Origin: Patescibacteria group bacterium
GTDB lineage: Bacteria; Patescibacteriota; Minisyncoccia; Moranbacterales; GWC2-37-73
DNA: 60,528 nt
Reading direction: 5' to 3'
Assembly: GCA_036391995.1 (NCBI GenBank)
Contig: DASVYU010000034.1
Span: 1 to 60,528, forward strand
Shown here: one piece after another, positions 5,444 to 10,701 of the stretch
How the letters are laid out: every line of letters starts with the position of its first letter
How positions within the stretch are numbered: position 1 is the first letter of the stretch
Position numbers and translations under genes: made by a program
The notes under the pieces: model-generated
What the model saw: the letters and a program-made list of their open reading frames with translations, nothing else
What the model was told of the DNA's origin: nothing
Databases searched by the model: none

Positions 5444-5722
5444 ATGCAACTAACTGACAAACAAATTGAAGATTTCCAACTTCTTTGGAAAAATCGCTTC
5501 GGCTATGACCTTCCTCGCAAAGAGGCTTTTGAGCAAGGAACTAAACTTGTCCGTCTTATGGAACTTATCTATCAGCCTATGACTGTTTCCGATTATGAGA
5601 TTATCCAGAAAATGCGTGCTGAAAGAATCAATAAGTCTGAAAGGCTAAACAACACAGAAAATTCCACAGGGGGCAGACAATATGTCGTAAAGCGTATCAA
5701 GTCGGGAGCAGAAAAACAGTGA
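5444..5722 (+). CDS. Small recombinase-associated hypothetical protein (92 aa)
   Basis: Directly upstream of recombinase 1; homologous by eye to 8780-8947. Confidence 0.75.
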   Translation: MQLTDKQIEDFQLLWKNRFGYDLPRKEAFEQGTKLVRLMELIYQPMTVSDYEIIQKMRAERINKSERLNNTENSTGGRQYVVKRIKSGAEKQ

Positions 5723-5795
5723 AATTATAGGTGTGAATAAGTGCCTAAATATGGCTTGTTTTAGCCAAATTATGTGATATACTCCATCCAAACAA

Positions 5796-7490
5796 ATGAA
5801 CGAAAACAACCAAAAAATAGGATATATTGTCTATACCAGGAAGTCCACGGAAGGTGATGAGAAACAGGCTTTGAGTATAGATAGCCAGAGGGAAAAAGCC
5901 ATGGAGATTTTTCCTGATTTGCGTATTGTCGATGTTGTGGAAGAAAAAAAGAGTGCGTTCACCCCATACAATCGCCCAGTTTTTGCTGAAATGCTAACAC
6001 GGATTAAGCGCGGAGAGGCGCAAGGTATCATTGCTTGGCATCCTGACAGACTTTCCCGCAATGAAATTGACGGCGGTTTGATTACTTTCATGCTTCGCCA
6101 AAAAGAAATTTTGGATTTGAAGTTCTGTTCCTATACTTTCGACAATTCTCCTGAAGGTATCATGTTTTTGCAACTAGCACTTTCGCAGTCTCAGTATTCT
6201 TCCGCTAAATTGAGCAAGGATGTGAAACGGGGTTTGGAAAAGAAGCTAAAAATGGGGTGGCTTCCTGGGGTTGCTCCGTCTGGATATTTGAACAATAAAC
6301 TGGCACAAAAAGGTGAAAAAGAAATACTGGTTGACCCTAACAGATTTCCCCTGATACGCAAAGCCTGGGATTTGCTTTTGACAGGCAGTTATACTGTCCC
6401 TCAAATTCTCTACAAACTAAACCACGAATGGGGTTATCGAACTATCAAGCGAACTAAAGAAGGTGGCAACCCCATGTCTCGCAGTGCTTTGTATAAAATT
6501 TTCACTAATAGTTTCTACGCTGGACCCTTCGAATACAGCGGTAAGATATATCAGGGTAAGCACGACCCCATGATAACACTCGAAGAATTTGACCATGCTC
6601 AAATCATACTTGGCCGCAGTGGAAAACCTCGACCACAAAAATACTCATTTTCTTTTTCTGGAACTTTTCGTTGTGCTGAATGTGGTTGCTTGTATGTGGC
6701 TGAAAAAAAGCACAAGGTTATCAAAGGCACTGGCGAAGTCCGTTCCTATATCTATTATCATTGTTCCCATTCTAAGCCAAATTATCGTTGCTCTCAGCGT
6801 TCAAGTATAACGCAAGAGAGACTAGAACTATTAGTATCTACGGAATTAGAAAACTGGACAATTCTTCCTGAATTCAGACAGTGGGCTGTAGACGCTCTAA
6901 GTAGCTCACATAAGAAAGAGGTTGAGGCTAGGAGCAAGATATATGAAACTCTACACAAAGAACTTGTATCCCTTCAGTCAAAAGAGGATAAATTGATTGA
7001 TATGCGTTGTTCAGGACTCATTGATGACGACAAATACACGGAAAGAGCCGCTGAAATGCAAAAGAGAAAGAAAGAGGTGCAGGAACTACTACGCGACACT
7101 GAGAATCGTGCTGACAAGTGGGTTGCTCTCACTGAAAAGACTTTTGATTTCGTCACCTATGCTCTTCAGTCTTTCGTTTCTGGCGACGCTCAAATTAAAA
7201 AGGAGATTATATTAGCTCTATCATCGAACCAGAAAATAAAGGACGGAAAACTCTTTGTTTCAGCTAACAAATGGTTGCAGCCTATTGGAAACAGCTATCC
7301 TGCCCTCAAAGAAGAATATCTTACACTAGAACCGCTGGAAACAGTATCAAATAAAGCAAAAACGGAGGCTTTGGATGCTCTCCGTCTACGATGGCTCCCA
7401 ATAGTTGATGTATTCAGAAGGCTTGGACAAAGGAAAATGGAAGAATCGTTTGCAATCTTGGAAATGAATTTTGCTCAATATGCCATATAG
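5796..7490 (+). CDS. Large serine recombinase 1 (resolvase + recombinase + zinc ribbon + coiled coil)
   Basis: Catalytic YTRKST; HPDRLSRN; alpha-E LSKDVKRGL; zinc ribbon CAECG...YYHC. Confidence 0.95.
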   Translation: MNENNQKIGYIVYTRKSTEGDEKQALSIDSQREKAMEIFPDLRIVDVVEEKKSAFTPYNRPVFAEMLTRIKRGEAQGIIAWHPDRLSRNEIDGGLITFMLRQKEILDLKFCSYTFDNSPEGIMFLQLALSQSQYSSAKLSKDVKRGLEKKLKMGWLPGVAPSGYLNNKLAQKGEKEILVDPNRFPLIRKAWDLLLTGSYTVPQILYKLNHEWGYRTIKRTKEGGNPMSRSALYKIFTNSFYAGPFEYSGKIYQGKHDPMITLEEFDHAQIILGRSGKPRPQKYSFSFSGTFRCAECGCLYVAEKKHKVIKGTGEVRSYIYYHCSHSKPNYRCSQRSSITQERLELLVSTELENWTILPEFRQWAVDALSSSHKKEVEARSKIYETLHKELVSLQSKEDKLIDMRCSGLIDDDKYTERAAEMQKRKKEVQELLRDTENRADKWVALTEKTFDFVTYALQSFVSGDAQIKKEIILALSSNQKIKDGKLFVSANKWLQPIGNSYPALKEEYLTLEPLETVSNKAKTEALDALRLRWLPIVDVFRRLGQRKMEESFAILEMNFAQYAI

Positions 7491-7589
7491 AGCCTGCTCT
7501 ACTTATAAAAATATAGATATGAAATTTATAAAAAAAGTCGCCACAGGTTTCCCTAATGACGACTTGAAGGTCTTTGACTGCCAACTTCG

Positions 7590-8153
7590 TTATTCAACGA
7601 TTTCAACAGTCGGACATATTTTTTGCTTCTTAGCTTTTGCGAATTCAACAAACATCTTGTATGTTTCCGATTTTTTTACAGCTTTCGTCATACAGAGGAG
7701 TATTACAAACACCGCAACGCCTGCCACCCAGCTCCAAAAAAATCCTGAGAAGACAGTGTGCTTTGCAATGCCCACAATGGTTGACCTTCCCACCATCATC
7801 GTGTCTTTTGGGTTAAAAAGGATGAAAGCCACAGCCACCCCGTATATAGGGTATACTCTCCAGCCTTTTATCGTGGGCCACTTGTCATAAGGAATGAGTG
7901 AATCACCTTTGTAGTCACCCTTGAATACTGGTGGCCTGTGCGCTATCCAAAAACCCAAAGTATAGCCGATGGCGGGAAAGAAGATATAGAAAATAAAATG
8001 TATCGCGCAGTAGGCAATTCCTACAATAGGCCAGCCAATGAAAAACATAAGCAAAAAACGCCAGAACAGTTTGCACAGATTTGTTTTTCTTGGACACCCA
8101 CCTGACAATCCATACGCAACCTTGTAAACGAAGCCCTCTTTCTTTATTTTCAT
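7590..8153 (-). CDS. Hypothetical membrane protein (probable start 8153, MKIKKEG)
   Basis: SD AAAGGAG upstream of ATG 8153; several hydrophobic segments; cargo of element 2. Confidence 0.75.
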   Translation of the reverse strand: MKIKKEGFVYKVAYGLSGGCPRKTNLCKLFWRFLLMFFIGWPIVGIAYCAIHFIFYIFFPAIGYTLGFWIAHRPPVFKGDYKGDSLIPYDKWPTIKGWRVYPIYGVAVAFILFNPKDTMMVGRSTIVGIAKHTVFSGFFWSWVAGVAVFVILLCMTKAVKKSETYKMFVEFAKAKKQKICPTVEIVE

Positions 8154-8779
8154 AATCTGCTCCTTTCCGCCAAAGGCGAGTTTGATTTTGTAGCTACAGT
8201 AAAGCAAAAATGGAAGCGAATTGTCAAATAAACTGATGTTTGAGTATACATCCATTTTATAAAATTGTCAAGTATTGAAAATGGCTGAAATAAGCCTTTT
8301 TCAAAAAGTATATCAACAATGAGCAACAGTTTTGGCAAATTTTTTGCACAAAGCAGCTTCTTTTATGTAAAAAATGGCTTATGTAAAGCATTTCATTATC
8401 TTTCAGTGCATAAAATAGGTGCAAAATGATGAGAAAAATGTTGCTCATTCGCACTTTTGCGCTGTTCATTCGTGCTCATTCAGGGTTTATAGGGATTTTT
8501 TGACCACAAATGTCGGTTATTTCAAAAAGGGTGGCAACCTTTACAAGAGGGTCATTTCCTGCTATCATAGGGTATAGTAATTAAGCCAATTTCATAAGTT
8601 TTGGAGAACACTTGGCGTAAATCCAGGAAACAGATAGGCTCTTGAGCCAAATATCCAGCCCTGCAGTAGCTGAGGATAACAAAGCGAACGTATCATCAAC
8701 TTTAGGTTGAGGGCTTTTGTTATCATTTTTCCAAAATTCATATCTCAGAAACCAGCAACCTCAAAGTTCGCTGGTTTTT

Positions 8780-8947
8780 ATGTTATTTGATGAAAAGATA
8801 TTTTATGAAAAATTAAGCAAAAAAGAACTTTCAGGGCAGGAAGTTTTTGCAGCCAAGAGTAACTTGGTCGGCTTTTTTGATTTGCTCTACCAAATTGACA
8901 AGAAAAAGAAGGAGGATAAATCTTCAAGTTCAGCAGGCTCTACATAA
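8780..8947 (+). CDS. Small recombinase-associated protein (55 aa from ATG 8780; 76 aa from TTG 8717)
   Basis: ELSGQEVFAAKSNLVGFFDLLYQ aligns with DLPRKEAFEQGTKLVRLMELIYQ of 5444-5722. Confidence 0.7.
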   Translation: MLFDEKIFYEKLSKKELSGQEVFAAKSNLVGFFDLLYQIDKKKKEDKSSSSAGST

Positions 8948-8995
8948 TAAAAACTTGGAACGGCAGTAGAAAATAATTTTATAAATTCCAAAACA

Positions 8996-9181
8996 ATGAG
9001 TAAAGAGCAACCAATGATAAAATCCAAAAAGGAATTAGAGGCGGCAATAATGGAACTACTAAACGACTATTACAGACTTGAAATTTCAGGAAGAATAAAA
9101 AGAGGCTTGGCTAAGCGAAAAATAGTTTTAGAAAACGCCAAAAGGTCATATAATACACGCAACATTAAGACCAAAAAATGA
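8996..9181 (+). CDS. 61-aa peptide resembling the serine-recombinase alpha-E helix
   Basis: YYRLEISGRIKRGLAKR matches YSSAKLSKDVKRGLEKK of recombinase 1; ATGA overlap with the start of recombinase 2. Confidence 0.7.
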   Translation: MSKEQPMIKSKKELEAAIMELLNDYYRLEISGRIKRGLAKRKIVLENAKRSYNTRNIKTKK

Positions 9182-10668
9182 AAGCGATATTGTTGGCAAG
9201 AGTCTCGGACAAAAAACAAGACTCCAATGAAGCACAAGTTTCCAAAGTGTCAGAATATGCAAAAATCAAAAGCCTGGAAACTTGGAAGACATATGAACTG
9301 GAAGAATCTTCCACCAGAGGCGACAGGAAGAGGTTTCAGGAAATAATCAGGGACATTGAAAATTCAAAAGAACCCGTAGCCTTAGTGGTGGACACAGTAG
9401 ATAGGCTTCAGCGAAGTTTCAAGGATTCAATTATTTTGGATGACTTCAGAAAAGCTGGAAAGCTGGAAATACACTTTTGTCGTGAAAATCTAGTCCTACA
9501 CAAAGATTCAAATAGTTCTGATTTGCTTCGCTGGGATATGGCGGTTATGTTTGCTAGAAGCTATGTCCTCCAGCTTAGCGACAATGTCAAAAGAAAAATT
9601 GACCAAAAGCTAAGAAACAAAGAATGGATAGGACAAGCGTATGTAGGATATAAAAACATAACGCTGACTGACGGAAGCAAAGATGTCGTGCCAGACGAAG
9701 ACAGAGCACATCACATTCAGAAGATGTTTGAAATGTATGCCACGGGAGGATATTCAATGAAGCAATTATCAAAAGAAATGTATGCCAAAGGACTTAGGAG
9801 CAGAAGCGGGGTTAAGGTATCCACAAGTCAGATTCACAATATGCTGCGAAATCCATTTTACTATGGTCAGATGAAAGTCAAAGGAAAGCTATATGACCAT
9901 AAGTATAGACCTCTCATCCAAAAACTTCTTTTTGACAAAGTGCAGGACACAATCAATGGCTATAATAGACAAAATTTCAAAAGGAGCAATAAGCCTTATG
10001 TTTTCAGGGGACTCATAAAATGCTCCCACTGCGGTTGTTCCATAACTCCAGAGCTTCAAAAGGAATATGTCTATTATCACTGCACGAACTTTCACGGCAA
10101 TTGCCCCAACAAAAAAGTCTGGCTCAGAGAAAAGGATTTGCTGGAACAAATAAAAGTCGTGTTTCAGAGCTTGAAGCTAGAGCCTGACGCACTTGAAAAA
10201 TTGAAGGGCGAGCTAAGAGCCGCGCACGCATCAGAAAAAGAATACTATGAGCAAAACATCAATGGACTCAAAAGACAGTTGGGACAAATTGATTCCAAGC
10301 TCAAGATTATGTATAACGACAGATTGGTTGGAAGAATTACAACTGACGAATATGATGAGTTGGTCAAAGGCTATAAAGAGGAACAGCAAGACCTCCTCCG
10401 CCAATATGAGGAACATTCTGAGGCTGATAAAAATTTCTACATTACAGCCAACAAAGTATTAGACTTAACTCAGAGGGCTTGGGAGCTATTTGAAAATTCT
10501 GAACCAAAAGAAAAAACCCAACTAGTGAGTTTTCTACTTCAGAACCTTTCGCTAGAAGGGAGAAACCTTTTATTTGAGGTTAAAACTCCCTTCAATGGCA
10601 TAGTGGAATATGCCAAAACTAAAGAATGGCTCCGCGACCAGGATTCGAACCTGGAACCAATTGGTTAA
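9178..10668 (+). CDS. Large serine recombinase 2; last 13 codons are antisense to tRNA-Asn
   Basis: Catalytic ARVS; TVDRLQRS; LSDNVKR; zinc ribbon CSHCG...YYHC...C; ends WLRDQDSNLEPIG* inside the tRNA. Confidence 0.95.
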   Translation: MKAILLARVSDKKQDSNEAQVSKVSEYAKIKSLETWKTYELEESSTRGDRKRFQEIIRDIENSKEPVALVVDTVDRLQRSFKDSIILDDFRKAGKLEIHFCRENLVLHKDSNSSDLLRWDMAVMFARSYVLQLSDNVKRKIDQKLRNKEWIGQAYVGYKNITLTDGSKDVVPDEDRAHHIQKMFEMYATGGYSMKQLSKEMYAKGLRSRSGVKVSTSQIHNMLRNPFYYGQMKVKGKLYDHKYRPLIQKLLFDKVQDTINGYNRQNFKRSNKPYVFRGLIKCSHCGCSITPELQKEYVYYHCTNFHGNCPNKKVWLREKDLLEQIKVVFQSLKLEPDALEKLKGELRAAHASEKEYYEQNINGLKRQLGQIDSKLKIMYNDRLVGRITTDEYDELVKGYKEEQQDLLRQYEEHSEADKNFYITANKVLDLTQRAWELFENSEPKEKTQLVSFLLQNLSLEGRNLLFEVKTPFNGIVEYAKTKEWLRDQDSNLEPIG

Positions 10669-10701
10669 CAGCCAACTGCTCTACCGTTGAGCTATCGCGG
10701 A
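10627..10701 (-). tRNA. tRNA-Asn (GTT), CCA encoded
   Basis: TCCGCGATAGCTCAACGGTAGAGCAGTTGGCTGTTAACCAATTGGTTCCAGGTTCGAATCCTGGTCGCGGAGCCA folds into a full cloverleaf. Confidence 0.97.

Follow-up and report, generated by a model that had tools for sequence, protein, structure and literature searches.

Helix-E-like microproteins encoded beside large serine recombinases in tRNA-Asn elements of Patescibacteria

What might a short protein resembling the oligomerisation helix of a recombinase do when it is encoded just before a recombinase gene? The question is raised by contig DASVYU010000034.1 of a Patescibacteria group bacterium, the whole 60,528 nucleotides of which were analysed and are referred to here as the window. 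An open reading frame (ORF) at 8996..9181 on the + strand, confirmed in the ORF list and by translation, encodes a product of 61 amino acids, MSKEQPMIKSKKELEAAIMELLNDYYRLEISGRIKRGLAKRKIVLENAKRSYNTRNIKTKK (7.2 kDa, isoelectric point (pI) 10.2), and its stop codon overlaps the start codon of a large serine recombinase (LSR) gene. The initial annotation had taken this peptide as a mimic of helix E, the helix at the dimer and tetramer interface of serine recombinases, and had suggested that it could poison or remodel synaptic complexes. The analysis described here indicates that the ORF is almost certainly a real gene under selection, that its product is very probably related to helix E of serine recombinases, and that it is probably a trans-acting regulator of the neighbouring integrase, not described before. 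In full-text searches of the literature, neither a helix-E protein that stands alone nor these Patescibacteria modules were found described.

Likeness of the peptide family to helix E

The segment on which the comparison with recombinases was founded, YYRLEISGRIKRGLAKR, occupies residues 25-41 of the peptide (nucleotides 9068-9118). Its counterparts are located at residues 133-150 of recombinase 1 (QYSSAKLSKDVKRGLEKK) and residues 128-140 of recombinase 2 (SYVLQLSDNVKRK), in both enzymes at the C-terminal end of the Pfam Resolvase domain, that is, in helix E. Recombinase 2 (9178..10668, +), encoded directly downstream of the peptide, is an LSR of 496 amino acids with the Pfam domains Resolvase, Recombinase and Zn_ribbon_recom, and the segment of it that the peptide resembles, helix E (residues 113-150), is encoded at 9514..9627 (+). 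Recombinase 1 is a second LSR, of 564 amino acids, encoded at 5796..7490 (+); its helix E, residues 121-154 including QYSSAKLSKDVKRGLEKK, is encoded at 6156..6257 (+).

Taken alone, the window peptide gives a weak signal, with no Pfam match and 5.9 bits against a hidden Markov model (HMM) of LSR catalytic domains. The significance of the likeness is due to the family and not to the single peptide. Relatives were sought in a word-indexed set of 5.8 billion proteins, with an HMM run exhaustively over 1.84 billion representatives, and by an iterated profile search. The family is rare and of narrow taxonomic range, amounting across all three protein searches to 14 clusters of 50-63 amino acids (homologues P0002-P0016), which come from metagenome assemblies of Parcubacteria/Patescibacteria type. 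Two long repetitive proteins matched in the HMM search of representatives were discarded as artefacts, and scans of viral contigs and metagenome contigs gave no further members.

Alignment of eight members with the catalytic domains of seven associated LSRs by hhalign gave P = 4.2e-5, and with 14 members P = 6.9e-6 at a probability of 84.5%; in each run the peptide, over its residues ~7-52, fell on the helix-E columns. In 200 column shuffles of the eight-member alignment the score was 10.9 +/- 2.2 with a maximum of 20.8, against 31.4 for the real alignment (z ~9), and the reversed peptide alignment scored 13.1. The HMM of LSR catalytic domains placed all 14 peptides at its positions ~113-154. 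When the HMM of the peptide family was run over the 766 six-frame segments of the window with at least 40 amino acids, recombinase 2 and recombinase 1 ranked directly after the peptide, both on helix E. A chance or compositional resemblance is ruled out by the column shuffles, the reversal and this window-wide scan. Individual members were also informative: five of the 14 match the helix-E end of PF00239 (positions ~106-142 in a profile of 145; best E value 0.0067), and Resolvase is the only Pfam family matched by more than one member. The gathering threshold of PF00239 (23.3 bits) is not reached in per-protein scans, the best member scoring 14.6 bits. The clearest single match is that of FQNNLKNCFAKYYSKMISERIKRGMARK in P0014 with the LSR sequence FQFSMSLGLAKYYSDAISDNVKRAYEQK.

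At the residue level, the amino acids S31, I34, K35, G37 and K42, invariant in the family, coincide with the LSR invariants S134, V137, K138, R139 and K144. All 14 members are aligned at helix E with its S/E-R-[IV]-K-x-G-L motif, and the solved catalytic-domain structure 3G13 has the same motif, ISANVKKGLKMKMKRGE. In the hhalign pairing, which includes L14/L117, I18/M121, L21/M124, L22/F125, Y26/Y129, L28/L131 and I30/L133, all nine hydrophobic positions of helix E are kept by the peptide. AlphaFold2, provided with the family alignment as input, returned a single continuous helix from residue 7 to residue 60 and no globular fold, with a predicted local distance difference test (pLDDT) value of 92-95 at residues 11-40 and a mean of 82.9. 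As a lone helix of 54 residues, the predicted peptide therefore requires a partner, whether itself, another protein or nucleic acid. The Pfam scan found no match to HTH_17 or to any other helix-turn-helix (HTH) family, and a winged-helix or HTH fold is not indicated.

The charge of the peptide is bipartite, residues 1-30 being acidic and amphipathic (pI 5.1) and residues 31-61 containing 12 K/R against 1 D/E (pI 11.9). Along the chain can be distinguished (i) residues 12-30 (9029..9085, +), within the acidic amphipathic half, which differ between lineages and pair with the half of helix E that is N-terminal and serves oligomerisation; (ii) residues 31-42, SGRIKRGLAKRK (9086..9121, +), which constitute the canonical C-terminal helix-E motif and contain the invariant or near-invariant amino acids listed above, and (iii) residues 43-61, IVLENAKRSYNTRNIKTKK (9122..9178, +), a basic tail that the core family conserves and for which helix E offers no clear counterpart.

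Compared with serine-recombinase helix E, as found at the end of PF00239 and in 3G13, gamma-delta resolvase and the SPbeta integrase, the peptide belongs to the same ~40-residue length class of continuous helix, has the same hydrophobic periodicity and shares the motif S-x-x-[IV]-K-[RK]-G-L-x-x-x-K. Unlike recombinase helix E it stands by itself: a catalytic serine domain does not precede it, no recombinase or zinc-ribbon domain follows, and it has an extra basic tail. Neither the window peptide nor 13 of the 14 members have strand beta-1 with the catalytic serine (Y-x-R-x-S-x-x-x-Q). With a score below the gathering threshold and no catalytic serine domain, the peptide is not a Resolvase family member, yet shares that family's helix-E module; it would stem from recombinase helix E or, at a minimum, have a homologous pattern. 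The initial picture of a stand-alone helix-E-like protein is supported by the single predicted helix and the nine retained hydrophobic positions, which bears out part of the initial interpretation.

One member deserves separate mention. P0009, from a contig of 1357 nucleotides (JGI 3300050821), begins MNKYLVYARRSSEAQ, where a part similar to strand beta-1 and the catalytic serine is joined directly to the helix-E part. The resemblance of its start, KYLVYARRSSEAQ, to the motif of strand beta-1 and catalytic serine is weak (E value 0.005, in one comparison), and hints that the family may have originated from a recombinase through internal deletion.

Selection on the gene and linkage to large serine recombinases

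A search for short ORFs of this kind upstream of LSRs, together with a test for selection, had been suggested along with the original proposal. Homologues next to LSRs were found in several lineages besides the window, and the ratio of nonsynonymous to synonymous divergence (dN/dS; Nei-Gojobori method, 21 pairs from seven DNA lineages) was 0.16-0.51 wherever dS could be estimated, the range of purifying selection. Synonymous divergence between the lineages is considerable, with dS from about 0.37 to saturation (>2); indels between lineages are all in frame, and the conserved motifs persist over 30-80% identity. The most constrained part is the C-terminal half, where dN/dS is 0-0.55, and 0-0.3 in most pairs, at a dS of 0.24-1.4. 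It is therefore the protein that is conserved and not merely the DNA. Decay of an older recombinase gene, the outcome under which the initial annotation would have given up its idea, is not what was observed: in addition to the selection and the in-frame indels, the gap of only ~50 nucleotides between the peptide gene and the preceding gene (ORF A) leaves no room for adjacent remnants, and no nucleotide similarity of the peptide gene to LSR genes was found.

The peptide gene is placed directly upstream of the gene for an LSR of 487-502 amino acids in the window and in lineages L001, L008, L010, L013, L015 and L019, and a diverged member of 57 amino acids occupies the same place in L028. In L020 the operon continues with a SpoVG-like gene and a G2P-type replication gene before it reaches the LSR gene. 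Wherever the contig of a lineage extends far enough, the LSR gene is directly downstream or in the same operon, so that the recurrence anticipated in other elements adjoining an LSR is borne out, and the small protein is encoded within the integrase's own element. The module consists of three genes, ORF A, the helix-E microprotein and the LSR, with the peptide gene in the middle. In the window the ATGA overlap between the last two was verified at 9178..9181 (+), the TGA of the peptide gene being at 9179-9181 and the ATG of the integrase gene at 9178-9180; the same overlap is found in L008 and L010, and at the junction of P0010 with a primase gene in L018. No obvious Shine-Dalgarno sequence precedes the LSR start, which follows an A-rich tract. 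From this arrangement the peptide gene appears to be co-transcribed with the recombinase gene and, in the window, translationally coupled to it. A run of six A (9173-9178) directly precedes the TGA/ATG overlap, and a -1 slip there would join the peptide to the integrase; such a frameshift fusion was rejected, as it is probably not conserved as a mechanism, four lineages having spacers that contain the stop codon.

When the LSRs of the window, L001, L013, L015 and L019 are compared they prove to be mosaic. Their catalytic domains are of two types, 30-38% identical, and their recombinase, zinc-ribbon and C-terminal regions are 58-87% identical, which implies domain-level recombination near helix E. 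The peptide-partnered LSRs of the window (9559-9627), L001, L013, L015, L019 and L020 have VKRKI, VKRAY or a more deviant sequence in helix E; the canonical [IV]KRGL is kept at the same position by the peptide and by the peptide-less recombinase 1, a pattern that comprises few cases.

The integrative element and its conserved leader

ORF A, the first gene of the module (8780..8947, +), encodes 55 amino acids under a dN/dS of 0.07-0.23. Its family comprises at least 136 clusters of ~55-amino-acid proteins from Patescibacteria mobile elements, with the consensus FYEKLSKKELSxxEVFEAKxNxVGFFDLLYxIDKR and a predicted fold of three helices; ORF A matched no Pfam family and no PDB fold significantly. 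Operons for serine integrases, for G2P-type rolling-circle replication proteins and for a VapE-type primase begin with members of this family. Having so many enzymes as partners, ORF A is generic, whereas the helix-E peptide keeps essentially to LSR modules. ORF A precedes the peptide gene in most lineages, and in L013 a gene for a tyrosine integrase is there instead. Upstream of recombinase 1, a gene of 92 amino acids (5444-5722) has an N-terminal half similar to ORF A (E value 8e-4). The idea that it fuses ORF A with the peptide was discarded, as its C-terminal half does not match the latter (E value 2.6).

The leader of the module contains several conserved elements. A hairpin followed by a T-run (8751..8779, +) abuts the ORF A start codon, with the arms ACCAGCAAC and GTTcGCTGG and then TTTTT ending exactly at that codon. 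Over seven loci 96% of the cells are paired, two pairs have compensatory double changes and three changes go via G-U. This element looks like a conserved RNA hairpin of the terminator or attenuator type. Farther upstream, a nested inverted repeat (8675-8724), GATAACAAAGCG..ATCAAC-TTTAG-GTTGAG..GCTTTTGTTATC, is kept in L001, L008, L010 and L015 with changes that preserve the complementarity of the arms, and could serve as an operator, form an RNA structure or be a site for a recombinase. An Rfam search of the leader, nested inverted repeat included, gave no match. Between ORF A and the peptide gene, a 19-nucleotide element, AAGTTCAGCAGGCTCTACA (8926..8944, +), is invariant in 15 of 15 loci with the core peptide module. 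It is conserved even in L008, where it lies outside the ORF A frame, and is therefore an element acting at the DNA or RNA level. An inverted copy of it, with three mismatches, is found on the stop codon of recombinase 1 (7487-7503, -); 0.1 such matches are expected by chance.

At the other end of the module, a tRNA-Asn(GTT) gene (10627..10701, -) overlaps the 3' end of the integrase gene in antisense, an arrangement also seen in L001 and L007, and is the presumed integration site. Because the 3' end of recombinase 2 overlaps tRNA-Asn as it does in relatives, the module is situated at the edge of a tRNA-Asn-integrated element, and the elements to which it belongs are integrative ones that have inserted at tRNA-Asn in Patescibacteria. 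The final 14 codons of recombinase 2 (10627-10668) are antisense to the 3' part of the tRNA, the overlap being 42 nucleotides in the window and 13-15 nucleotides in L001 and L007. If the crossover takes place within this overlap, the C-terminus of the integrase could differ between the integrated and excised forms. No tRNA-derived direct repeats marking the ends of the element were found, and no excision or empty-site junctions were seen in the contigs of four metagenome runs that contain the locus.

Two serine-integrase modules are placed in tandem by the same tRNA (5444-10701), which suggests successive insertions; between them a membrane protein of 221 amino acids is encoded (7590-8255, -; phrog_944). 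The related islands of L014/L015 and L019 carry restriction-modification cargo, one of them a Dcm-type methylase, EcoRII-C and Vsr, the other HpaII, a methylase, Vsr and SocA_Panacea. With such cargo in related islands, the tRNA-Asn elements of Patescibacteria therefore function as small defence islands.

Possible action of the microprotein and its meaning

In the active tetramer of serine integrases the N-terminal part of helix E constitutes the flat platform for rotation and its C-terminal part docks in the minor groove of the crossover site (bioRxiv 10.1101/2025.01.03.631226), and bending of the helix is an allosteric switch (bioRxiv 10.1101/2025.01.03.631226; PMC11795197). It is also common for fragments of a protein to inhibit the protein from which they derive (PMC9245647). 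Given the platform and groove roles of helix E, a free copy could therefore compete for its contacts or for the groove, and the idea of the initial annotation is mechanistically sensible. Taking into account that (i) the gene is linked to LSR operons; (ii) a single helix needs a partner, and (iii) the helix-E pattern is retained, we propose that the peptide might be a helix-E decoy that acts in trans on the complex of recombinase and DNA. The amphipathic N-terminal half would pack at the dimer/tetramer platform, in place of a partner helix E, and the SxRIKRGLAKRK half, together with the basic tail, would rest on the minor groove of the crossover-site DNA. The combined effect would shift the dimer-to-tetramer equilibrium, so that integration and excision are restrained or redirected.

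These proposals are not equally firm. On balance, the peptide seems to act on LSR recombination in some way, the chances being slightly in favour. The whole mechanism of a helix-E decoy on the recombinase-DNA complex is ranked first among the explanations considered, and is put forward tentatively, at somewhat less than an even chance; decoy action specifically is at that level or a little lower. That the peptide would be a natural microprotein decoy, and the first trans-acting factor at the catalytic and oligomerisation core of a serine integrase and at the crossover minor groove, as opposed to the junction of DBD2 and the coiled-coil, gating the dimer-to-tetramer switch, is a rather doubtful extension. 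In a bolder variant, the partnered integrases having lost the canonical KRGL that the peptide keeps, the peptide might supply in trans a helix-E function given up by the enzyme, with recombination becoming peptide-dependent.

Several results weigh against the decoy. Peptide identity does not follow the identity of the LSR catalytic domain (r = -0.09) or of its helix E (r = 0.07): a pair of peptides 79% identical sits with LSR catalytic domains 35% identical, and near-identical peptides serve two helix-E types. This absence of co-variation is mildly unfavourable to a heteromer of microProtein type. The N-terminal half, which would form the interface, is the least conserved (dN 0.15-0.97), and SxRIKRGLAKRK and the basic tail are the most conserved; with conservation concentrated there, nucleic-acid binding fits at least as well. 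A profile search of the PDB with the peptide family led to basic ribosomal proteins, non-significantly, and to no recombinase, and the helix-E link therefore needs profile-profile methods. Among distant family members, P0010 precedes a CHC2 primase gene on a contig that ends early, and P0015 is followed by a 105-amino-acid ORF and an HTH_17 gene, with no LSR within its 4.4-kb contig, which also ends early. The gene overlap from which a fixed stoichiometry with the integrase had been expected is present in the window, L008 and L010, three of the seven LSR-linked lineages examined, and does not extend to L001, L013, L015 and L019, where spacers of 11-18 nucleotides separate the genes. Moreover, an inhibitor produced in step with its enzyme is paradoxical unless the stabilities of the two differ. 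The lack of co-variation, the conserved basic half and the non-universal overlap fit a partner that is conserved across all the elements. The attachment (att) core within tRNA-Asn, the conserved leader and, in the LSR, the conserved C-terminal half of helix E (LSDNVKR...GEWIG) could each be that partner.

The strongest alternative, ranked second, is a nucleic-acid-binding regulator or architectural factor in which the groove-docking half of helix E has been kept and a basic tail added. Such a protein would form a dimer via its amphipathic N-terminal half and bind the tRNA-Asn att core, the leader operator or the structured leader RNA, controlling expression or site architecture without touching the recombinase helix E. 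The charge and pI of the C-terminal half, its position as the part under the strongest constraint, and the missing co-variation with the helix-E type of the LSR all agree with it, and every element shares the tRNA-Asn site and the conserved leader with its hairpin, nested inverted repeat and invariant 19-mer. The distant members that precede a primase or other genes can be counted in its favour, as can the non-significant likeness of the basic tail in the PDB profile search to the RNA-binding N-terminus of bL20; a likeness to eL43 was likewise not significant. This alternative would nevertheless leave aside that the entire hydrophobic pattern of helix E is retained, the interface half included, that the peptide is confined to LSR operons wherever its context is visible, and that a single helix is predicted with no recognised DNA-binding fold. 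We regard it as rather unlikely, at about one chance in a few.

Ranked third, and improbable, is a conventional recombination directionality factor (RDF), the likeness to helix E merely reflecting the origin of the gene. The small RDFs SprB of SPbeta, Gp44 of A118, Xis of phiRv1 and Orf7 of TP901-1 are, like the peptide, accessory proteins of 7-9 kDa within an LSR element (PMC11795197), and a likely role in control of the reaction would be common to both. Known small RDFs lack a shared fold, and the 7.2-kDa peptide agrees with them in size and in its place in the element (PMC11795197; bioRxiv 10.1101/2025.01.03.631226); the order xis before int is classical. Peptide identity is also best correlated with the C-terminal region of the LSR, weakly (r = 0.42) and over pairs that are not independent. 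Known small RDFs, however, bind elsewhere than helix E, at the junction of DBD2 and the coiled-coil (bioRxiv 10.1101/2025.01.03.631226; PMC11795197), and have no helix-E likeness. No similarity of the peptide to known RDF or Xis proteins was found in Pfam, PHROGs, NCBIfam or PDB, which is weak evidence given the heterogeneity of RDFs, and the strong purifying selection on the helix-E motif would be left unexplained. Excisionases of the Xis/HTH_17 type are likewise small basic proteins encoded just upstream of the integrase, but they are winged-helix proteins, whereas the peptide is a single long predicted helix without a match to HTH_17.

Far less probable is a coupling leader ORF, the translation of which would only bring ribosomes to an integrase start without a Shine-Dalgarno sequence, the peptide itself having little function. 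The overlap or short spacer and the A-rich tract before the LSR start would suit this role; purifying selection at the amino-acid level amid many synonymous changes, and motifs kept across such diverged sequences, would not, and a helix-E pattern is needless in a leader ORF. A decaying remnant of some older recombinase that tandem insertions at the one tRNA left behind, as the two LSR modules of the window and, weakly, the start of P0009 might suggest, is scarcely credible and was rejected, as dN/dS is well below 1 in 21 of 21 pairs, length and position are constant, neither nucleotide similarity to LSR genes nor adjacent degenerate sequence is found, and dS of about 0.4 to >2 shows that the homologues are not one recent clone.

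If the peptide is a helix-E decoy, it would be most like the self-derived regulators of transposases and the microProteins of eukaryotes. Tn5 Inh and IS911 OrfA are truncated or partial transposase products that regulate their parent transposases, and the eukaryotic microProteins, Id and LITTLE ZIPPER among them, regulate their parent proteins. To our knowledge, no self-derived regulator of this type is known for serine recombinases. Like those regulators, the peptide consists of an oligomerisation module of a larger protein, is encoded with or near its presumed target, and is devoid of catalytic or DNA-recognition parts. With respect to the definition of microProteins (PMC4807768), it has the oligomerisation module of the target family, as indicated by the helix-E homology and the single predicted helix, and in its 61 amino acids it lacks the catalytic serine as well as the Recombinase and zinc-ribbon domains of the target. 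It differs from them in its history: Tn5 Inh, IS911 OrfA and the microProteins share sequence with their targets through alternative starts, frameshifts or recent paralogy, whereas the peptide has an old gene of its own and has ceased to co-vary with its neighbour.

LSRs are leading tools for the insertion of DNA payloads of large size, and the only natural control of large serine integrases known to us is that exerted by RDFs acting on the coiled-coil. If the decoy proposal is true, a natural peptide of 7 kDa targeting helix E would disclose a second point of control. Such a peptide would provide a compact, genetically encodable off-switch or direction switch as well as a probe of the dimer-to-tetramer transition, and a clear bacterial case of a regulator built from the oligomerisation helix of its target enzyme family. 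If the peptide is instead a DNA- or RNA-binding regulator, it would still be an enzyme helix exapted into an independent gene. Action as a helix-E decoy would, moreover, show how the mobile elements of the poorly studied Patescibacteria control their movement.

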